Sequence record: MK931438.1
Source: Escherichia phage Schulenburg
DNA: 44,748 nucleotides
Strand: one strand, 5' to 3'
Position numbers and translations under genes: made by a program. The notes beneath the pieces are model-generated. The model worked only from the letters and a program-made list of their open reading frames with translations, made no database searches and was not told where the DNA came from. This document shows, piece by piece, positions 3,349 to 42,507 of the stretch; positions within the stretch are counted from its first letter, which is position 1, and every line of letters begins with the position of its first letter.

Positions 3349-3371
3349 AGCCCCGAAAGGGGCTTTCTTAT
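3349..3371 (+). terminator. intrinsic terminator-like hairpin after portal gene
   Basis: agcccc-gaaa-ggggct stem-loop followed by TTTCTTAT. Confidence 0.45.
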
Positions 3372-3407
3372 AGTATGCTATTAACTTTAGCGCCACAGGG
3401 TTTATCT

Positions 3408-6184: not shown

Positions 6185-6213
6185 ATAGTACCCTATTATA
6201 TTGGTGCGCGCAA
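6185..6213 (-). promoter_or_regulatory. type-B promoter/operator (TTGCGC-N17-TACTAT over palindrome AATAGGGTACTATT)
   Basis: Minus-strand TTGCGC, 17-nt spacer, TACTAT; inverted repeat AATAG-N4-CTATT overlaps the -10; about 30 nt upstream of moron start 6157. Confidence 0.45.
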
Positions 6214-13310: not shown

Positions 13311-13477
13311 TTCAATTGCATTGGGTAGAAGTTAACGAGTTCTCCTTTATCCCGAAGCCGTGAATATTCATCTAACGCATCTTCCCGGCTACTTACAGCA
13401 TAGATATCATTCCACTCGTCCCATTCTTTGTCGTATACGCGGATTATGTATATTGTTTTCATTACATTCTTACTCAT
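13304..13477 (-). CDS. hypothetical small protein (57 aa)
   Basis: Minus-strand ORF, ATG at 13477 (M15 of track ORF 13304-13519); last gene of the moron operon. Confidence 0.4.
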   Translation of the reverse strand: MSKNVMKTIYIIRVYDKEWDEWNDIYAVSSREDALDEYSRLRDKGELVNFYPMQLKE

Positions 13478-13700
13478 CAATATTACTCCTGTACTCTCGT
13501 AACTTCTCCAGACTTTCAATTGCTTCCGCTAAGTCGGTTCCGGTGTCTTTGTGCCCGCGAAGGCCCATACACAATAGCTTCTTCAATGCGTGCTGTAGCG
13601 CCGGGTCGCGAATGTCGAAGGCACGCAGCACATCATAAACGTCTACTGTCATAGTGCTGCCGTGAGTGTTTGTCATTGTGCGGTTGTATTTATTTGTCAC
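13470..13700 (-). CDS. hypothetical conserved small phage protein
   Basis: 76-aa ORF with GTG start preceded by AAGAGAG; motif DVYDVLRAFDI...HALKKLL..GLRGHK. Confidence 0.45.
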   Translation of the reverse strand: MTNKYNRTMTNTHGSTMTVDVYDVLRAFDIRDPALQHALKKLLCMGLRGHKDTGTDLAEAIESLEKLREYRSNIDE

Positions 13701-15289: not shown

Positions 15290-15318
15290 ATAGTATCCTA
15301 TTATGTTGGGGTGCGCAA
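15290..15318 (-). promoter_or_regulatory. type-B promoter/operator (TTGCGC-N17-TACTAT over palindrome AATAGGATACTATT)
   Basis: Same architecture as sites near 6185, 38175 and 39101; about 40 nt upstream of the Imm-like gene. Confidence 0.45.
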
Positions 15319-25757: not shown

Positions 25758-25790
25758 AAAAGGCCCCGAAAGGGGCCTTTTCTCTACTTT
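25758..25790. terminator. bidirectional intrinsic terminator at structural/replication module boundary
   Basis: aaaaggcccc-gaaa-ggggcctttt hairpin with flanking A and T runs. Confidence 0.65.
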
Positions 25791-25917: not shown

Positions 25918-26409
25918 TCACGCGGTTTCTCCGTGGTTTTCATGAAATCCGTAAGCAGCTTCCGCAGCTTTACGCGCGGCGACAGCTTCGTCAAAATTAT
26001 CAAACCTTCCAATAGTTTTTGTCTTTCTAAATTTGGTTATTTGTACCAACCACTTGCACCGCTCTTTGTCAAATGACACCCCTACCGCCCCAGACCTATT
26101 ACGCCCGGTAGCCAGCCTGTTCATAGCGTTTTCCTGCTTAGTAACTACCCTTAAATTTGCGAGCCTGTTATCTGCGCGATTATGGTTCTGATGGTCTATT
26201 TCCATGCCGTCTGGTATAGGCCCATTGAACATTTCCCATATGACCCGGTGTGCGCGGTAGATAACCCCGTTGTAGCGAAACTGAATGTAGCCGAACTTGT
26301 TTAGTGTTCCGGCTACAGCACCTTTAGCAACATTTTTAGCAGGTTTTATAACCCATATTAGATTTCCGGTCTCCGGTTCATACCGTAGTACATTCTTCCA
26401 GATAAACAT
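25918..26409 (-). CDS. HNH endonuclease with AP2 domain
   Basis: HNH motif EIDHQNHNRADNRLANLRVVTKQEN; C-terminal AP2-like GVSFDKERCKWLVQI...GRFDNFDEAVAARKAAEAAYG. Confidence 0.8.
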   Translation of the reverse strand: MFIWKNVLRYEPETGNLIWVIKPAKNVAKGAVAGTLNKFGYIQFRYNGVIYRAHRVIWEMFNGPIPDGMEIDHQNHNRADNRLANLRVVTKQENAMNRLATGRNRSGAVGVSFDKERCKWLVQITKFRKTKTIGRFDNFDEAVAARKAAEAAYGFHENHGETA

Positions 26410-27830
26410 TATCGTTTCCTTCTCTTCATATAATTAAGTAGTTCGTCCTGTACAGACCTTTTCTCGTCTGTACGCGCGGCGACAACTTCATCAAGAGTAT
26501 CTCGGGCTATTATTTTATAAATGAATACAGACCGTTTGTATCCGGATTGCATCTGCCTTACTGGGCCTATACGCTCGATAACCTGCAGATAATGTTCCAG
26601 GTTCCACCCCTGACTCATAAAAGCCATGTGATGCCCGCCGTGTTGTAGCGACAGCCCGTGGCCCGCGGAGGCTGGGTGTATCAGGAGCATAGGTATCTCG
26701 CCACGGTTCCACGCTTCCATCTGCTTATTACCCTTGGCCCCTTTGGCAAACGCCTGGGCTTGTGGGAATCTCTTAAGGATGCGCTCCAGTTCATGCTTGA
26801 ACTGATAGGCCACCAGTAACGGCGCACCATGCAACTCTTCAACAATGGACTCCAGCGCGTCCAGCTTCGTGTCATGCACTTTCTCCCAGTCTTTCGTTGC
26901 TTCGCCATCTGGCCCTGATACATACACGGCACCGGACGCAATCTGCAAACACTTAGATGTCTTCGCAGCCGCGTTAGCCGCTTCAACTTCTCCGCTCTCC
27001 AGTTCCGCGAATAGCTTCTCCTCCATATCTATGTACGCCTGACGCGCTTTCTTCGGCAGGTCAATTTCCACCGGCACGATAATCGGCGCTTCACAACCGA
27101 ACCACTCGGCGGCGTCAATCGTCAGGCTAATGTCTTTCATCTTCTGGTGAATTTCATTATCCGCACCAGGGCGTGCATGATACTCACGCGCCATAGCCGA
27201 TTTGCCTTTCTGTACCGAGTTAAACCATCGGTCGGTGAATGCCGTGTATGAAGAACCGAGGCGCTCGCCCGCGTCGATAAACCAGTTCTGACCCCACAAG
27301 TCTTTGAGGCCGTTCGGTGACGGCGTTCCCGTCAGGTTTATAAAACGCTTGACCCTACCGAACGCAACCTTGCTAAGCGCCTTTGCCCGCTTGCTGCCAC
27401 CTGAACGACTGCGGAATGATTTCAGTTTCGTGCTCTCATCGGCAACGATAACCGTAAAAGGCCAGTCGTCTTTGCCGTAATAGTCAATAAGCCACTCGAT
27501 AACTTCGTAGTTTGTACAGACCACATTAGCGTCTGACTCCAGTGCCGCGATGCGGCGCTTCTCTGAACCTGTCGCATCTACGACGCGCAGACACGGGAAT
27601 CGCCATTTCTCTTGTTCTGATGGCCATGTGCCGGACGCAACACGCAGCGGGGCGAGGATTAACACGCGGTCGTCGTCCGTAAGCTGCCCGTTGCGGAACA
27701 GTCGGTTAAGCACCCACATCGTTGCGGAACTTTTGCCGGCGCCCATCGAAGCCCAAATATTACAGCGAGGATGCTGTAGCATGAACGAAGTCATGAGCTT
27801 CTGGTACTCGCGCCTTTGAAACTTACTCAT
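26409..27830 (-). CDS. SNF2/DEAD-like helicase
   Basis: Walker A ASMGAGKSS; DExx box VIVADESTKLK; 473 aa. Confidence 0.75.
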   Translation of the reverse strand: MSKFQRREYQKLMTSFMLQHPRCNIWASMGAGKSSATMWVLNRLFRNGQLTDDDRVLILAPLRVASGTWPSEQEKWRFPCLRVVDATGSEKRRIAALESDANVVCTNYEVIEWLIDYYGKDDWPFTVIVADESTKLKSFRSRSGGSKRAKALSKVAFGRVKRFINLTGTPSPNGLKDLWGQNWFIDAGERLGSSYTAFTDRWFNSVQKGKSAMAREYHARPGADNEIHQKMKDISLTIDAAEWFGCEAPIIVPVEIDLPKKARQAYIDMEEKLFAELESGEVEAANAAAKTSKCLQIASGAVYVSGPDGEATKDWEKVHDTKLDALESIVEELHGAPLLVAYQFKHELERILKRFPQAQAFAKGAKGNKQMEAWNRGEIPMLLIHPASAGHGLSLQHGGHHMAFMSQGWNLEHYLQVIERIGPVRQMQSGYKRSVFIYKIIARDTLDEVVAARTDEKRSVQDELLNYMKRRKR

Positions 27831-28018
27831 TTTGCCACCAGCACCAGCTCTTTACGCCCGAACGCCGTAACGTTACCTGTTACGTCTTCAATAACCAGTT
27901 TACCGTTCGACTCGACGAACACCGTATCAACGGCAACAGGTTGACGGGTCTTAACATTGAAAATCATGTCGCCAGGTACGATGTCACGTGCGGGTTTGCG
28001 GTCATATTCGTGTTTCAT
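27827..28018 (-). CDS. hypothetical protein (63 aa)
   Basis: AAGGAA SD; first gene after the 28052-28080 promoter; overlaps helicase start. Confidence 0.5.
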   Translation of the reverse strand: MKHEYDRKPARDIVPGDMIFNVKTRQPVAVDTVFVESNGKLVIEDVTGNVTAFGRKELVLVAK

Positions 28019-28048
28019 TTCTCAATTCCTTATATTGTTGGTGTAGGA

Positions 28049-28348
28049 CTAACTATAATAGTTTGCTATTATGTCGTCAACCTCTTCTTTTGTTCCTACT
28101 ACAAAAACATTTGCGTCACGTTTACGAAGCCGTTTGTGCTCCCGTAACTGATGTTCCTCCGGTTCCGTGTTTTCATCCTTCTTCACCTCTACAAACCATA
28201 TAACCCCTCCCGGAAGGACAACCAACAGGTCAGGCGCTCCGTTTCTACCCTCATACACTATCTTACGAACGAGGCCGCCAAGGGCCTCGAATTGCTCTTT
28301 TGCGTATTTCTGAATCTTGCCTTCCGGAGTCATGAGCGCAAAACCCAT
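28049..28348 (-). CDS. VRR-NUC domain nuclease
   Basis: PD-(D/E)xK-type motif PDLLVV...WFVEVKKDE; 99 aa. Confidence 0.6.
   Translation of the reverse strand: MGFALMTPEGKIQKYAKEQFEALGGLVRKIVYEGRNGAPDLLVVLPGGVIWFVEVKKDENTEPEEHQLREHKRLRKRDANVFVVGTKEEVDDIIANYYS
28052..28080 (-). promoter_or_regulatory. type-A promoter with operator in spacer (TTGACG-17-TATAGT; ATAATAG-N4-CTATTAT)
   Basis: Minus-strand -35/-10 with 17-nt spacer containing a perfect 7-bp inverted repeat; overlaps the 3' end of the VRR-NUC gene. Confidence 0.55.
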
Positions 28349-28476: not shown

Positions 28477-28685
28477 TGTCATAATACACACCCCTCACGT
28501 TTCGTATGCTCAATTCCGCAGCGCGGACAGATTCGACAATCTTCTTCATATAACCGGTATATTTTCATTCCGGCACCCACAGATAAATTGCGATTAACAT
28601 ACCCAATACGGCAACCATCATGCCGTACTGTCCCTCGTGACAGTAACCACCGGCGGCGAATCCAGCCAGTACCGCGATAATCAGT

Positions 28686-30857
28686 TTACTTAGCATAGCG
28701 CTTCATCTCCGCACCTTCTGCAACCAAAGGGAATCCCTCCGCCCAGTCAGGCAATTCACACATCAACCTCTCAAGCTCTGCAACATTGTATTCAGGCGAA
28801 TCTGGCGTCTCGCAGATAATCTCATCGTGTACATGAAGCACAATCGGGTAGCCGTTTGCTTCAACTTTAAGTAGCGCGTTAGCCAGCAAATCACGGCACA
28901 ACGCCTGCGTACAGTTTTCCACCAGTTTGCCTGAGTACGTGTACTGGAATCCCCACTGACGCGTTAACTGGTTCTCCCCCTGGTACTTGATGCGCACGTT
29001 AGTAGAAACTTTTCCGTCTTCGTCTGTCTCTTTCGACACGCTTAAACCGACGCCAGGGTAGGACATAACACGTCCCGACGGCAACGTCATGCGCAACCAC
29101 CAACCCGCTACCTTGTTGCCGTTGTTGTCTGTTTCTACGTTGCGGGAAAACTTAACTCCGCGCGGGCCAGCGGAGAACTCTTTCCCCGGATTACGTATAG
29201 CTGCCATAGCTGCGTCTTCAATATCGCGCCAGAATTGTACTATCGCCGGGTTGGCTTCCCGGTACATTCGTTTCAGAGCGTCACATGTACGCCAGACTTT
29301 CTTATCAAGGATATATGATGGTCGGTCATCCTTTTCACCCGGACGCGGAGGACGTTTAGCTTCCTGAATACGTGCCCACTCGTAACCACGTGCCGTAGCG
29401 GCCCATATATGGTCAGGGAAAGTTCCAGCTAAAATGTTAGTCATGTCGTTCAAATCAAGCCCTAAGTTTTTAGCAAACGTGACGAAAGCGCCCACACCCC
29501 CCGCGTAGCCCAGTCCGAGAACCATTGCTTTGGCTATTTGTCTTTGGTCTTTTGTTACGTCGTCATAACTAACATTGAACACGGTTGATGCGAGTTTCTT
29601 GTACACATCAACTCCGTTTACAAATACTTCTATTAAATCGTCTTCACCCGCCAGCCAGGCCAGCCCACGACCTTCAACGTTAGAGTAATCGGCAACAACA
29701 AACTTGTGTCCGGCTTCCGGGATGATGCAGCTACGCACCGTCGATGCCGTCAGCTTGGCGACATCAAAGCGGCGATGTGCACGTCCTTTCAGTAGCGCAG
29801 AAATACCTTTATCCAGTTCATCGTCATGATAGTACCCGCGGGCCAGGTTCTGTGGCTGGAAGCCTTTGCCAGCGAATCGTAGCGTACGCTTAGCCCCGCC
29901 GTACTGGATACAACCACGGCGGCGGTCGTCTGACGAGCGGCCTAGCAACAGCGGGTTATATTTCGTTGACGCAGTTGACGCGGCCCCGAGGCGCATTTCG
30001 ATAATCATGCGTGCATCGTCGGGTAAATCCTCGTCAGCCAGCAGGTCGTTAAGAGTAGACTTCTGTGCGTTATGGATGCGATGCGCAGGGGCCAGTTCAC
30101 GCAGAATCGGCAGGAAGTCTTTACCGGTAAGCGAGCCGCCGTATTTGCGCTGGGCTTCTTCCTGCAACTGCGCCTTGTGCTTCTCTACGGCTTCAATCGC
30201 TGCTTCCGCCAGCGCAACATCAACCTTGAACCCACGGTCATTGATTAACTGGTCCAGTTCCAGTACACGGTCTTCGAACTCAGAGTTACCCCACCGCGGC
30301 AGCTTATGGAAGACTTCACGCATCGCGGTGATGTCGCTCACGGCGTACTTGATGAACAGCGCCCACTCGTCCAGGTGCGTTTCGGCGGTGTAGCGGCGGA
30401 TTTTGTAGTTCTTCGGCGTAGGTTTAGAGAAACGCTGAATCAGCGCCTTGCCGCGTTTATCTTTCGCGTTGTCTGCCGATACACCCAGCACTTCGCACAA
30501 CGCATCAAGTGAACCCGGCAGCGCGTGGCGAAACGCCCAAATCATCGTATCAATGGTGTTGCTTACAGGAATATCAAAACCCCAGCAGTGTTTCATGATG
30601 AGCCTGTCGAACATTGAGCCGTTGTGCCACACCATCTTGATACGGCTGTTCGGCTTAACCAGGCGGCGTAAGGCGCGGTGCAAATCCCCCGGCATGTCGC
30701 TGCCGTCGGTGCAATCCCATACCTGCACAGGCTCGTCATCAAAAGCATAGGTACAGATTAGCACTTCGGTAGTTGGATGTTCGGCGTAAGCGTAAGAACC
30801 GACTTTCTTTAAATCGGCCTCGGAGAATGTTTCAAAGTCCAGGTATAAGTAGCTCAT
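28686..30857 (-). CDS. DNA polymerase, family A, with 3'-5' exonuclease domain
   Basis: Exo I motif YLDFETFS; Pol I motif A VVADYSNVEGR, motif B RQIAKAMVLGLGYAGG, motif C HVHDEIICE; ATG at 30857 (AAGGAAAAAG SD) preferred over TTG 30911. Confidence 0.85.
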   Translation of the reverse strand: MSYLYLDFETFSEADLKKVGSYAYAEHPTTEVLICTYAFDDEPVQVWDCTDGSDMPGDLHRALRRLVKPNSRIKMVWHNGSMFDRLIMKHCWGFDIPVSNTIDTMIWAFRHALPGSLDALCEVLGVSADNAKDKRGKALIQRFSKPTPKNYKIRRYTAETHLDEWALFIKYAVSDITAMREVFHKLPRWGNSEFEDRVLELDQLINDRGFKVDVALAEAAIEAVEKHKAQLQEEAQRKYGGSLTGKDFLPILRELAPAHRIHNAQKSTLNDLLADEDLPDDARMIIEMRLGAASTASTKYNPLLLGRSSDDRRRGCIQYGGAKRTLRFAGKGFQPQNLARGYYHDDELDKGISALLKGRAHRRFDVAKLTASTVRSCIIPEAGHKFVVADYSNVEGRGLAWLAGEDDLIEVFVNGVDVYKKLASTVFNVSYDDVTKDQRQIAKAMVLGLGYAGGVGAFVTFAKNLGLDLNDMTNILAGTFPDHIWAATARGYEWARIQEAKRPPRPGEKDDRPSYILDKKVWRTCDALKRMYREANPAIVQFWRDIEDAAMAAIRNPGKEFSAGPRGVKFSRNVETDNNGNKVAGWWLRMTLPSGRVMSYPGVGLSVSKETDEDGKVSTNVRIKYQGENQLTRQWGFQYTYSGKLVENCTQALCRDLLANALLKVEANGYPIVLHVHDEIICETPDSPEYNVAELERLMCELPDWAEGFPLVAEGAEMKRYAK

Positions 30858-31009
30858 TTCTTTTTCCTTAAATCCAGTGCCTTCGTTTCGCTTAATCTTA
30901 TTTTCATACAATCACAGCAAATCCACACATGCTTGTACCCGGCCCGGTACTCATCTGCATACCACGGAAGCGGTTTCATATAGCGATAAACGTGCTTACA
31001 GAAAAACAT
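30854..31009 (-). CDS. small Cys-rich protein (51 aa, putative zinc-binding)
   Basis: Not in ORF track; MFFCKH...WICCDCMK; stop overlaps polymerase ATG (ATGA), suggesting translational coupling. Confidence 0.35.
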   Translation of the reverse strand: MFFCKHVYRYMKPLPWYADEYRAGYKHVWICCDCMKIRLSETKALDLRKKK

Positions 31010-31021
31010 TATTTTCGACCC

Positions 31022-31049
31022 TTAGTAAAAAGGCCCAATGAAGGGCCTT
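31022..31049 (-). terminator. intrinsic terminator-like hairpin (minus strand)
   Basis: aaggccc / gggcctt stem followed on minus strand by TTTTT; downstream of the DUF2815-like gene. Confidence 0.45.
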
Positions 31050-31068
31050 AGTTAAATTGATTCAGATA

Positions 31069-31753: not shown

Positions 31754-31782
31754 ACTATAATAGCTAACTATTCAGGTGTCAA
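31754..31782 (-). promoter_or_regulatory. type-A promoter with operator in spacer (TTGACA-17-TATAGT; AATAG-N4-CTATT)
   Basis: Perfect -35, 17-nt spacer containing inverted repeat gAATAGTTAGCTATTat; immediately after the DUF2800-like stop. Confidence 0.55.
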
Positions 31783-31786
31783 CACT

Positions 31787-33031
31787 TTATTCTAAATCTT
31801 CTTCACTAACCTGATTCCACTCAGGCCGTTTGTCGTCTGCCGTTGCTACACATGGTGCACCTGGCTTACGTGTGATGAAGTCTTTCAGTTCTTCTTCCGG
31901 TATAACTTTAACCGCTTCGGTCGGCGTCATGAGAACGACTTTGTTCAGCATAGTGCCGTATTTCTCAGCCACCTTATCAGCGTCTTTCCACGCACGATTA
32001 CCCGGACGACCCTCGACCAGCTTGTAACCCGGCACTTTCTTGCCAGAATGCAACGCGGCAGCCATAGCTTTCTCAACCTTGTCGATGTGCTGGCGCAACA
32101 ACGGCAGCTTCTCATACTCGGCGACGAGTTGCTCGGGTGTCAGTTCCAGCGCAAAGTCGTCCTCCAGTTCTTCCACCAGTACAGAATTAACAGTCTTCGT
32201 CCTGGCGACGCACTGTTCCGAGAACCGGCACCACTGGCAACCATCGACTGACGGCTTAAAGTCGGACGCTTTCAGGTTCTTCTTACCACGGAAGTACGCA
32301 TCGAGTGCTAACAGCGCGCGTTTATGTGCGAACTTAGTGAACAGTTCCAGGCCTTCAACCGAGATATCCCACTCCGACGCACCGCCAGCATACGGCTGGA
32401 AGATGACCAGACGAACAGTTGTTATGTTATATCGTCTCTTTAGTCGGCGATAAACACCGAGAGCGTAAAGCATAAGCTGCTTGTTTTCTTTCGCTTCGAC
32501 ACGATGCCGTCCGGTTTTCAGGTCACCAATAATGAGCATGTGCTCGTCGGTGTTCGCCAGTTCCTGCACGGCAACAAGGTCAGCGGTCCCGAACGTCTCA
32601 ACGCCTTCATATCCCGGATGCAGCACCTCTGTAAGATTGACGCGCATTTCCAGCTTGGCGTAAGTCGCTACGTCGATAATCGGTTTGCAGTAGTCGGTGT
32701 ACTTACGCACCTGCTCAATCATGTCCGCCGTAATAAGTACCGCACCTTTCATAAGGCTGATTAACGCCTTAATCTGGCCTTTGCCTTCATCCAGCACGTA
32801 AGCCCCGACTTCACGCTCTAACGGCAACGCAGTGCCTTTGATGTACTGGTTAAGGTGAATCTCAGCTATGGTGTGCATGGCTGTGCCCAATACGGCGGCT
32901 TTACCTGACGTATTTGGAATGTCTTTTTCACATGCCAGTGATGCACTGCACGTCAGCCACTTCTTAGCGCCTGACGGCGACAACAGGGCGTGCACATCGT
33001 TATTGCCGCCGCGTTCTTTTAGTTTCATCAT
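31787..33031 (-). CDS. PD-(D/E)XK Cas4-like nuclease (DUF2800-like)
   Basis: N-terminal HALLSPSGAKKWLTC, nuclease motif TADLVAV...IIGDLKTG, C-terminal Cys cluster CQWCRFSEQC. Confidence 0.7.
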   Translation of the reverse strand: MMKLKERGGNNDVHALLSPSGAKKWLTCSASLACEKDIPNTSGKAAVLGTAMHTIAEIHLNQYIKGTALPLEREVGAYVLDEGKGQIKALISLMKGAVLITADMIEQVRKYTDYCKPIIDVATYAKLEMRVNLTEVLHPGYEGVETFGTADLVAVQELANTDEHMLIIGDLKTGRHRVEAKENKQLMLYALGVYRRLKRRYNITTVRLVIFQPYAGGASEWDISVEGLELFTKFAHKRALLALDAYFRGKKNLKASDFKPSVDGCQWCRFSEQCVARTKTVNSVLVEELEDDFALELTPEQLVAEYEKLPLLRQHIDKVEKAMAAALHSGKKVPGYKLVEGRPGNRAWKDADKVAEKYGTMLNKVVLMTPTEAVKVIPEEELKDFITRKPGAPCVATADDKRPEWNQVSEEDLE

Positions 33032-33285
33032 TTGGACTCCACCGGTAACTCAGGTAAATACATCCAGTGTGTTATACCCATCTCTATATACCGTTTCGTG
33101 TATAACTGTTTTCCGTTTTCATCCAGACCGGCGGTGATATCGTCGAAGTAATCCTGGATGTGAACAAAATCAATTCCACCTTCAGGGAAGCCGTTGTCAT
33201 CATATTTACTTCCGTCTACGGAGCAAACCAAAACAGCATCATCTTTTGATTCCGGTAACGCATCATTTACGCTAACCCAATTCAT
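33028..33285 (-). CDS. hypothetical protein (85 aa)
   Basis: ORF with overlapping start/stop coupling in the leftward operon. Confidence 0.5.
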   Translation of the reverse strand: MNWVSVNDALPESKDDAVLVCSVDGSKYDDNGFPEGGIDFVHIQDYFDDITAGLDENGKQLYTKRYIEMGITHWMYLPELPVESK

Positions 33286-33554
33286 ACCCTAACCTCCCAC
33301 TGGTCGATTAAATGTCGTGTCTTATGGTCGCAGTGCATAGCCCATCCATACATCGACTCGAAGACATAAAAGTCACTTTTAACAAAAGTCGTGCGCTTAA
33401 TCTGCGACATGTGACGGCCTATATCTTTAGGCCGTGGTACTTTGCCTAAGTACGCCATCTCTTCCATCTGGTGTGCGCCGGACGGAGCGCGCAACAGCCA
33501 TAGCGCCTCTGCGTTATCCCGCCGGTCAACGGCGCGGTAGAGTTGGTAAATCAT
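33282..33554 (-). CDS. hypothetical protein (90 aa)
   Basis: ORF in leftward operon. Confidence 0.5.
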   Translation of the reverse strand: MIYQLYRAVDRRDNAEALWLLRAPSGAHQMEEMAYLGKVPRPKDIGRHMSQIKRTTFVKSDFYVFESMYGWAMHCDHKTRHLIDQWEVRV

Positions 33555-34290: not shown

Positions 34291-34319
34291 ACTATAATAG
34301 CGAACTATTCACTTGTCAA
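34291..34319 (-). promoter_or_regulatory. type-A promoter with operator in spacer (TTGACA-17-TATAGT; AATAG-N4-CTATT)
   Basis: Minus-strand promoter divergent from the HTH regulator gene; inverted repeat gAATAGTTCGCTATTat in spacer. Confidence 0.55.
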
Positions 34320-34322
34320 TGG

Positions 34323-34352
34323 GCTTTTCTAAAATAATTAATATGGTACTAT
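34323..34352 (+). promoter_or_regulatory. candidate promoter of HTH regulator with half-palindrome AATATGGTACTATT
   Basis: TACTAT -10-like hexamer with weak -35; operator-like motif related to the type-B sites. Confidence 0.35.
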
Positions 34353-34383
34353 TCACGCATCAACTAACTAAGGAGTAACTGAC

Positions 34384-34599
34384 ATGCAACCATCTGAACT
34401 AGGCATCCGTGTAGAACAACGCCGTAAAGAACTCGGCATCTCCCAGCGCCGTCTGGCTGTCCTGACTGGCGTTTCCCAGGGCGCGATTAACCAACTGGCA
34501 CTTGGGGTAACTCAGGACGTCCGCCCGGCGACGCTGTTTAAACTGGCGGAAGTGCTGGAGGTAGACGCCAAGTGGCTGGCGTTAGGTGAAGGGGCTTAA
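34384..34599 (+). CDS. HTH XRE-family transcriptional regulator (Cro/CI-like)
   Basis: 71 aa; HTH region ELGISQRRLAVLTGVSQGAINQLALG; AAGGAG SD; divergent from operator-containing promoters. Confidence 0.7.
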   Translation: MQPSELGIRVEQRRKELGISQRRLAVLTGVSQGAINQLALGVTQDVRPATLFKLAEVLEVDAKWLALGEGA

Positions 34600-37384: not shown

Positions 37385-37591
37385 ATCGCCTGCAAACCAC
37401 GCGTGCGCAGAATCATAGAAACGACATTTACTTAATACCTCGATTGGCATCTTAATAATGCGCGTCGGTTCCGACAAATGATTAGGCTTACATATTTCTA
37501 CATAGAATCCGCTGTCAGTAATTTCTGACGCAAACTTAAACCGGTATTTAACTTTACCGTCTTCAAAGTAACAACCCATACGCCCAATCAT
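37379..37591 (-). CDS. hypothetical protein (70 aa)
   Basis: ORF coupled to upstream AlpA-like gene. Confidence 0.5.
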   Translation of the reverse strand: MIGRMGCYFEDGKVKYRFKFASEITDSGFYVEICKPNHLSEPTRIIKMPIEVLSKCRFYDSAHAWFAGDK

Positions 37592-37770
37592 TTCACGTTC
37601 TCCTTAATCCATGCTTCAACTTTATTACGGTCAAATGTACCCGGTAAACGGCGGCCCATTACTTTAATACAGCAGTCAGGGAATTTACCACTGCGCAGCC
37701 AGTTATTAATTGTCTGACGTGTCACACCGATACGTTCTGCTACTTCATTCTGGGTCATGTAATGTTGCAT
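37588..37770 (-). CDS. AlpA/Xis-like DNA-binding protein
   Basis: MTQNEVAERIGVTRQTINNWLRSGKFP HTH; ATG at 37770 with AGGAGA SD. Confidence 0.5.
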   Translation of the reverse strand: MQHYMTQNEVAERIGVTRQTINNWLRSGKFPDCCIKVMGRRLPGTFDRNKVEAWIKENVK

Positions 37771-37876: not shown

Positions 37877-37905
37877 GTTGACTTTTACTAAGAAATATGG
37901 TAAGC
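37877..37905 (+). promoter_or_regulatory. sigma70-like promoter (TTGACT-17-TAAGCT) of conserved RNA element, copy 2
   Basis: Same hexamers and spacing as the copy at about 6280. Confidence 0.5.
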
Positions 37906-38105
37906 TCAGCCTGAGCTTGTGAAGTATGAACAAGCGACCGCGGCGCGCGGCAGGCGAAACGAGCACGTGTAGCGTGTGGAGTGAGGCTCGCTAGCGCGTT
38001 TGGGAGGCCCAAAGTCTATTGTAATTCCCGCCTAAATATCTAAGTTACTGATTTGCCGTAGGTTATATCCGCAAGCTCACTCACTCTTGGTGCCTTCGGC
38101 ACCAC
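37906..38105 (+). ncRNA. candidate promoter-proximal structured RNA / leader element (copy 2)
   Basis: Shares the about 40-nt core and a further diverged about 130 nt with copy 1; hairpin gcttgt-N9-acaagc; ends near the ggtgcc-ttcg-ggcacc hairpin. Confidence 0.3.
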
Positions 38106-38174
38106 GTTCGTTTCGCTCGCTACACCATTAAACAAAAGAATCACAACGGCAACGTAACCATTTTCAATGAATCT

Positions 38175-38203
38175 CTTGCACACCCCAACATAATAGGATA
38201 CTA
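38175..38203 (+). promoter_or_regulatory. type-B promoter/operator (TTGCAC-N17-TACTAT over palindrome AATAGGATACTATT)
   Basis: About 35 nt upstream of first early gene. Confidence 0.45.
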
Positions 38204-38238
38204 TTCACTTATCGGAACGAGACAGAGGAGTGAGGGTT

Positions 38239-39100: not shown

Positions 39101-39129
39101 TTGCACGATGGGGAAGAATAGGATACTAT
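39101..39129 (+). promoter_or_regulatory. type-B promoter/operator (TTGCAC-N17-TACTAT over palindrome AATAGGATACTATT)
   Basis: About 35 nt upstream of ATG 39161. Confidence 0.45.
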
Positions 39130-42457: not shown

Positions 42458-42478
42458 TCTATTTTCTGTAATGACTAG

Positions 42479-42507
42479 TTGACTATTACCTACGACCCTA
42501 TTATATT
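42479..42507 (+). promoter_or_regulatory. sigma70-like promoter (TTGACT-17-TATATT)
   Basis: About 35 nt upstream of ATG 42541. Confidence 0.5.

Follow-up and report, generated by a model that had tools for sequence, protein, structure and literature searches.

A putative promoter-operator in the last codons of a nuclease gene of Escherichia phage Schulenburg, one of seven promoter-like sites sharing a palindrome

Do the last codons of a small nuclease gene in Escherichia phage Schulenburg (MK931438.1) double as a regulated promoter for the genes that lie downstream? A preliminary description of this DNA had proposed such an element, with the promoter hexamers TTGACG-17-TATAGT and an inverted repeat in the spacer. 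Here the proposal was followed up in the window, that is, the whole stretch of DNA analysed (44,748 nucleotides), which at 44.7 kb is a complete Kagunavirus genome (Guernseyvirinae) with Escherichia phage Snoke as its closest relative (96.6% identity over the tested 5.5 kb) and with about 450 related Escherichia and Salmonella phage records. Overall it is probable that a sigma-70 promoter lies in the last ten nuclease codons, serves the helicase module and carries a palindrome through which a phage protein controls it. The element is already known from public records and the literature and is an ordinary feature that will not surprise specialists; the addition made here is a corrected, unified interpretation.

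Layout of the element and its transcription unit

The nuclease gene and the parts of the element are located as follows:

28049-28348, minus strand: ORF for a 99-aa PD-(D/E)XK-type nuclease, named VRR-NUC or Holliday junction resolvase in relatives
28075-28080, minus strand: −35 hexamer TTGACG, 5/6 match to TTGACA, in nuclease codons 90-92
28055-28072, both strands: 18-bp palindrome ATAATAG-N4-CTATTAT, a putative operator
28052-28057, minus strand: −10 hexamer TATAGT, 5/6 match, in nuclease codons 98-99 (TAT AGT)
28019-28045, minus strand: 5′ leader ACACCAACAATATAAGGAATTGAGAA with Shine-Dalgarno sequence AAGGA, the predicted transcription start being at about 28044-28045

The arrangement TTGACG-17-TATAGT was found on the minus strand in the 3′ end of the nuclease gene, as had been described. 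The 17-nt spacer is ACATAATAGCAAACTAT, and the hexamers together give 10/12 sigma-70 matches, the −10 having the expected A and T at its positions 2 and 6. In the correct orientation for a sigma-70 promoter, they are followed by the AAGGA Shine-Dalgarno sequence and by an ATG at 28018, 33 nt past the −10. The start of the leader, ACACCAAC, also trails the −10 of a second promoter-like site at 15318-15290. The inverted repeat reads ATAATAG-caaa-CTATTAT on the minus strand and ATAATAG-TTTG-CTATTAT on the plus strand; it is exact over 7 bp, but the preliminary description placed it wholly in the spacer, whereas the last TAT of its right arm forms the first three bases of the −10. Its core, AATAG-N4-CTATT (28057-28070), spans −25 to −12 relative to the predicted transcription start. 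The −35 does overlap the last codons of the gene, but so does the rest: because the nuclease stop codon (TAG, 28051-28049) stands immediately 3′ of the −10, the entire element is contained in the last 10 sense codons.

The nuclease ORF matched phrog_93 (endonuclease, E=4e-31) and phrog_5702 (resolvase, E=3e-17) among the PHROGs. The name VRR-NUC given to it beforehand has its basis in the annotation of homologs, as in the Jersey record, which names a VRR_NUC motif for the homologous nuclease, but Pfam VRR_NUC (PF08774) gave no match to the 99-aa protein at E≤0.01 and there was only a weak PD-(D/E)XK-type match. Residues T86, K87, E88, E89 and I93 (28085-28100 and 28070-28072, minus strand) are each unique to the window in a comparison with 47 relatives, and the C-terminal region of the nuclease shares 92% identity with phage vB_EcoS_XY1 rather than with Snoke. 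This suggests local recombination at the nuclease C-terminal region, and the promoter and palindrome are intact despite the unusual C-terminus.

Downstream, the leftward unit is composed of the following features:

27827-28018, minus strand: 63-aa ORF, the first downstream gene, its stop codon overlapping the helicase start (ATGA)
26409-27830, minus strand: 473-aa SNF2-type helicase (Pfam SNF2-rel_dom, E=3.5e-12; phrog_62, E=6e-165)
25918-26409, minus strand: 163-aa HNH endonuclease (Pfam HNH_3, E=1.6e-23; phrog_99)
25758-25781, both strands: strong bidirectional intrinsic terminator, AAAAGGCCCC-tttc-GGGGCCTTTT plus a T-run, ending the leftward unit

A small ORF follows the HNH gene and is itself followed by the terminator. 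A transcript starting at about 28044 would thus cover the 63-aa ORF, the SNF2 helicase, the HNH endonuclease and the small ORF before reaching the terminator at 25781-25758. The helicase and HNH genes, for which the promoter had been proposed, are both downstream of it, but the first gene to be served would be the 63-aa ORF. At the place corresponding to the HNH gene, Snoke has a 61-aa hypothetical gene instead, and the HNH gene at the end of the helicase unit is probably a mobile (homing-endonuclease) insertion. Relatives differ in what follows the promoter, some having a Dcm methyltransferase, an intein-containing helicase or other genes.

A reason for a promoter at this internal position may be found upstream, where a terminator-like hairpin, AAGGCCC-ttcatt-GGGCCTT plus a T-run (31025-31051, minus strand), stands directly past the single-stranded DNA-binding protein (SSB) gene. 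This hairpin, which lies between a promoter-like site at 31782 and the DNA polymerase gene, fell just below the threshold of the terminator scan and carries no annotation in Snoke. Because transcripts from 31782 must pass it, an internal promoter restoring helicase transcription would make sense, and the promoter at the nuclease end would most likely top up expression of the helicase module.

The palindrome family and its conservation

Sigma-70-like matches as such occurred at chance density (19 found vs 17.1 expected in a 16-kb scan); the three best, with 11, 11 and 10 of 12 matches and located at 28080, 31782 and 34319 on the minus strand, all bear the palindrome. The core AATAG-N4-CTATT is present in 7 copies in the genome against 0.03 expected, a number reached in 0 of 100 shuffles, and it ranks first in an unbiased scan of 5-Nx-5 palindromes both in the window and in Salmonella phage Jersey, the remaining top matches being terminator stems. 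All seven perfect cores lie within −35/17-bp/−10 layouts and at either of two fixed positions, counted with the last −10 base as −7. In type A, TTGAC(A/G)-17-TATAGT, the core spans −25 to −12; this layout is seen at three sites, all on the minus strand, including the one at the nuclease end (28080-28052). In type B, TTGC(A/G)C-17-TACTAT, it spans −19 to −6, and there are four such sites. The six sister sites are:

31754-31782, minus strand: type A, TTGACA-17-TATAGT, predicted to drive the ssDNA-binding protein gene; homolog annotated in Jersey at 32925-32953
34291-34319, minus strand: type A, divergent from a gene for a Cro-like protein
6185-6213, minus strand: type B, TTGCGC-17-TACTAT, palindrome at −19 to −6
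15290-15318, minus strand: type B, TTGCGC-17-TACTAT, palindrome at −19 to −6
38176-38204, plus strand: type B, TTGCAC-17-TACTAT, palindrome at −19 to −6
39101-39129, plus strand: type B, TTGCAC-17-TACTAT, palindrome at −19 to −6

Downstream of each of the seven come a leader of similar sequence (ACACCAAC or ACCAAAC...), a Shine-Dalgarno sequence and an ATG, and the palindrome consensus across them is (T/G)AATAG-N4-CTATT(A/C), 14-18 bp. The possibility that the type A sites are type B promoters firing in the opposite direction was rejected, since a fitting −35 at the 17-bp distance is lacking and 31757 has no gene running rightward.

Conservation was assessed in two genera over 49 distinct sequences, taken from IMG/VR loci and from the phages Jersey and AG11. 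At the nuclease end, TTGA is conserved in 100%, TAATAG in 96-100% and CTATTATA in 98-100% of these sequences, against 55-88% for the N4 centre of the palindrome and 59-78% for the bases past TTGA; the leader, although it is non-coding, is 76-100% conserved as far as the following ATG. This conservation exceeds what the protein needs. In a codon set of 41 sequences, the third base of the arm codons is 100% fixed (Leu xTA, Ile ATA, Tyr TAT, Tyr TAT), whereas only 24% of comparable conserved-residue columns of the nuclease gene are equally fixed at the third base. The arm codons are also in the minority in the phage, with ATA making up 20% of the Ile codons, CTA and TTA together 24% of the Leu codons and TAT 38% of the Tyr codons, and the residues beside or between the arms are variable (D/T/K, A/E, N/D/S/H and S/I). 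Perfect 7-bp arms were found only in the window and in phage fBC-Eco01; most relatives have 6-bp arms, TAATAG/CTATTA, because codon 93 encodes Leu (CTA or TTA in 46/47 relatives). The locus provides a clean example of dual coding, in which a regulatory site limits both the choice of codons and a protein's C-terminal sequence.

The conservation of hexamers and arms, the frozen synonymous positions, the geometry shared with two sister promoters, the conserved leader leading to a Shine-Dalgarno sequence and ATG, and the annotation of the homologous site in Jersey and AG11 bear out the promoter reading, which is strongly supported by this comparative evidence. The operator reading is plausible. 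The presence of the palindrome at two positions and in two orientations with respect to transcription argues for a separate protein-binding module rather than for polymerase recognition. At every one of the seven promoters the palindrome would cover DNA contacted by RNA polymerase, from −25 to −12 at three and from −19 to −6 at four, so that a dimeric phage-encoded protein most likely binds there and represses all seven together. Activation instead of repression is conceivable at the four type B promoters because their −35 hexamers are weak. Promoter activity, repression and the identity of the binder are what we infer from these sequence comparisons, the literature on Guernseyvirinae relatives having yielded no transcript-start or binding experiments. 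RNA-seq of the Kagunavirus K1B4 sampled infection from 5 to 120 min and classed genes by peak time, with no start sites, a resolution too coarse for the timing of promoters.

Several imperfect copies of the palindrome were also observed. One of them, AATAT-GGTA-CTATT with one mismatch, lies at 34340-34353, 31 nt upstream of the Cro-like gene, and is kept in LM02P1 and L112. Another, ACTAG-TTGA-CTATT (42474-42487, plus strand), overlaps the −35 of a promoter-like site, TTGACT-17-TATATT, upstream of small genes that precede the terminase genes; it is likewise retained in LM02P1 and L112, and at the homologous annotated promoter Jersey has AATAG-TTGA-CTAGT (L075, 42338-42351), with the mismatch in the opposite arm. 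A third one-mismatch copy, TATAG-TATG-CTATT (3369-3382, plus strand), follows immediately on the terminator hairpin downstream of the portal gene, and LM02P1 has kept it as well (L115, 2790). Lying ahead of the head genes, it may represent an eighth site of regulation. At 37877-37905 (plus strand), promoter-like hexamers TTGACT-17-TAAGCT, with an extended −10 of the TGn type, face some 300 nt without a convincing ORF. The stretch 37877-38180 on this strand is G+C-rich and has a terminator-like hairpin at 38088-38104; it gave no Rfam match and could encode a small RNA.

Candidate binders of the palindrome

Two helix-turn-helix (HTH) proteins encoded in the window were considered as binders:

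34384-34599, plus strand: 71-aa HTH_3 Cro-like protein (Pfam HTH_3, E=2e-12; 434 Cro, E=8e-6; PHROG transcriptional repressor families)
37588-37770, minus strand: 60-aa HTH_17 (excisionase/MerR-like) protein (Pfam HTH_17, E=1.6e-8)

The 434-Cro-like protein is favoured, at a probability a little short of even; the HTH_17 protein comes second, as a possible but doubtful binder, and a phage or host factor that has gone unrecognised comes third and is unlikely. The sites have several features of operators of the Cro/CI (HTH_3) type, namely a dyad of 14-18 bp that is repeated at promoters and overlaps polymerase contacts, together with an HTH_3 gene in the same genome that has sites beside it (34296-34309 and 34340-34353, with the gene at 34384). 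A perfect and a one-mismatch palindrome within 90 bp upstream of the Cro-like gene support its product as the binder, and members of its protein family are dimeric dyad binders. The Kagunaviruses have one and the same recognition helix, a variant protein with only 78% overall identity included. Across the Kagunavirus loci, the protein itself is 94-100% identical in 36 of 37, far above neighbouring genes (70-81% for the nuclease).

Against the Cro-like protein, Jersey has the same palindrome core and yet a different helix (SQSLITH vs SQGAINQ in the window), which is nearer to that of the Cornellvirus FSL SP-031 (TQSAISH), and Cornellvirus is without any palindrome. Covariation of operator and helix is consistent within Kagunavirus, with Jersey and Cornellvirus pointing the other way. 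Such comparisons, made with Jersey, Cornellvirus FSL SP-031, Dhillonvirus EK99P-1, LM02P1 and L112, gave mutually contradictory results as a whole.

The same comparisons bear on the HTH_17 protein, which, made early, would bind the palindrome and turn the seven promoters on or off once the first minutes of infection have passed, a scenario that we regard as unlikely. The palindrome and the HTH_17 protein co-occur in 4/4 genera, both being present in Kagunavirus and Jerseyvirus and absent from Cornellvirus and Dhillonvirus, and just as the palindrome core is the same in the window and in Jersey, their HTH_17 proteins are 80% identical. The protein would also be made from a palindrome-free promoter, that of its gene being TTGCTT-17-TATACT (37831-37803). 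In K1B4, the HTH gene at the matching position by gene order, which is probably HTH_17, is one of only four "early" genes. However, the helix in LM02P1 reads SPMTLNRW against TRQTINNW (4-5 substitutions, including R to P) with eight perfect palindromes unchanged, and no palindrome adjoins the HTH_17 gene. Small excisionase-like HTH_17 proteins, moreover, usually bind direct repeats or single sites, not dyads.

Neither phage candidate covaries cleanly with the palindrome, and its core is identical in phages of both hosts, as would be expected if the binder were a host DNA-binding protein that E. coli and Salmonella have in common. This is improbable, since Cornellvirus, with a Salmonella host, and Dhillonvirus, with an E. 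coli host, have the same genome layout without the motif; we know of no host regulator with the palindrome consensus.

Other small proteins of the phage were rejected as binders. The 63-aa ORF downstream of the promoter fitted in phyletic pattern and in its 95% conservation, but its confident structural model (pLDDT 90) is a barrel like domain I of EF-P/eIF5A, and it was set aside because this fold is not one of sequence-specific DNA binding. The lineage-specific small ORFs at 13470-13700, 28565-28696, 30854-31009 and 33282-33554 showed no DNA-binding domains.

Other readings of the repeat and precedents in related phages

With the phage-controlled promoter as the preferred reading, two further explanations of the repeat itself were weighed. 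At the nuclease end, the palindrome could work at the RNA level rather than as a DNA site, with the nuclease mRNA folding into a hairpin at its 3′ end for stability or processing. A 61-nt stretch folds at −10.1 kcal/mol (z = −3.2 vs shuffles), and the arms are conserved with a variable loop, as a hairpin would have them. However, the sequence of the arms is fixed, without compensatory changes, and the six other copies lie upstream of the predicted transcript starts and would be untranscribed there. The stem is mostly A-U and no U-run follows, unlike an intrinsic terminator, and the terminator scan has no entry at this place; an Rfam scan of the whole window gave no family match. An RNA hairpin is therefore very improbable.

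The second explanation is the published one. In fBC-Eco01, seven sites found with PHIRE, with the consensus tgAATAGTa-ccTATTat-T, were assigned to a phage RNA polymerase (PMC9825357), and a second Kagunavirus paper also gives seven PHIRE promoters (PMC7203180). The fBC-Eco01 site PP4, ATAATAGTTTGCTATTATGT (Supplementary Table S2, PMC9825357), is base-for-base identical to 28055-28074 of the window, and the seven sites form the same family. Although the motif emerges from PHIRE as a phage-specific repeat and all seven sites, PP4 included, are labelled "Phage RNAP promoter", the reading of this 20-mer as a promoter for a phage-encoded polymerase is effectively refuted, since the motif is a dyad, takes two positions and two orientations with respect to the genes downstream, and is found in a genome whose large ORFs (DNA polymerase A, primase-helicase, DUF2800 nuclease, SNF2 helicase and tail proteins) contain no RNA polymerase domain, nor does the annotation of Snoke list such an enzyme. 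The label of "phage RNA polymerase promoters" in the Kagunavirus papers is a mislabel that is now corrected. The dyad symmetry goes unremarked in the fBC-Eco01 paper, and its list of host promoters omits the surrounding TTGACG-17-TATAGT (PMC9825357).

Promoters have been annotated at the homologous site in Jersey (NC_021777.1, 29238..29266) and in vB_SenS_AG11 (NC_041991.1, 25608..25636). As in the window, these occupy the final codons of the gene for the Holliday junction resolvase (VRR-NUC), with the same strand logic and a 63-aa ORF downstream; unlike in the window, the hexamers are TTGATA and TATATT and both arms are TAATAG. The annotations derive from a consensus scan ("2 bp mismatch") and are silent on the palindrome and on the genome-wide family. 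In the searchable papers and records, no link of sigma-70 hexamers to the palindrome and no operator label was found. The sigma-70 annotations of the Jersey type and the PHIRE motifs of Kagunaviruses can now be brought together as one feature, a set of seven promoters sharing a palindrome. This promoter/operator set offers a starting map for transcript studies and for engineering, Kagunaviruses and Jerseyviruses being widely proposed for phage therapy and biocontrol.

The arrangement resembles the Cro/CI operators of lambdoid phages (434 Cro, P22 C2) in its 14-18-bp dyad, in the spacing of the half-site centres by about one helical turn, in the overlap of the dyad with sigma-70 promoter elements and in the 434-Cro-like 71-aa protein encoded between divergent promoters with two sites. 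Unlike lambdoid phages, Schulenburg is virulent, with no CI or integrase, and its operators would be seven single sites spread across the genome rather than clustered triplets, with a different half-site and with putative binding only.

A promoter-like element at the nuclease end is also present outside these two genera. Dhillonvirus EK99P-1 has the same gene order, and there TTGCTG-17-TATAGT lies across the stop codon of the nuclease homolog, with conservation in 10 loci. This element has its own genus-specific motif, TATTGGTTGC, in place of the AATAG palindrome, and neither HTH homolog is present. In Cornellvirus, no promoter-like element was found at the nuclease-end position. A more far-reaching reading, which we put forward only tentatively and think unlikely to hold as a whole, would have one palindromic operator, in two positions, controlling seven promoters of a strictly virulent siphophage, with one copy constraining a protein C-terminus to L-I-x-x-Y-Y; the regulator would be neither of the obvious HTH proteins acting in textbook style, but an unrecognised binder or two proteins sharing the site, and the nuclease-end promoter would be an old positional feature in which the control motif has been swapped between genera.

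In the EK99P-1 genome, TATTGGTTGC occurs in 7 copies against 0.12 expected, mostly at promoter-like sites and often paired around the hexamers. One copy lies at 29827-29836 (L113) and the others at six further sites, one of the copies being in the 3′ end of a VRR-NUC-type gene.
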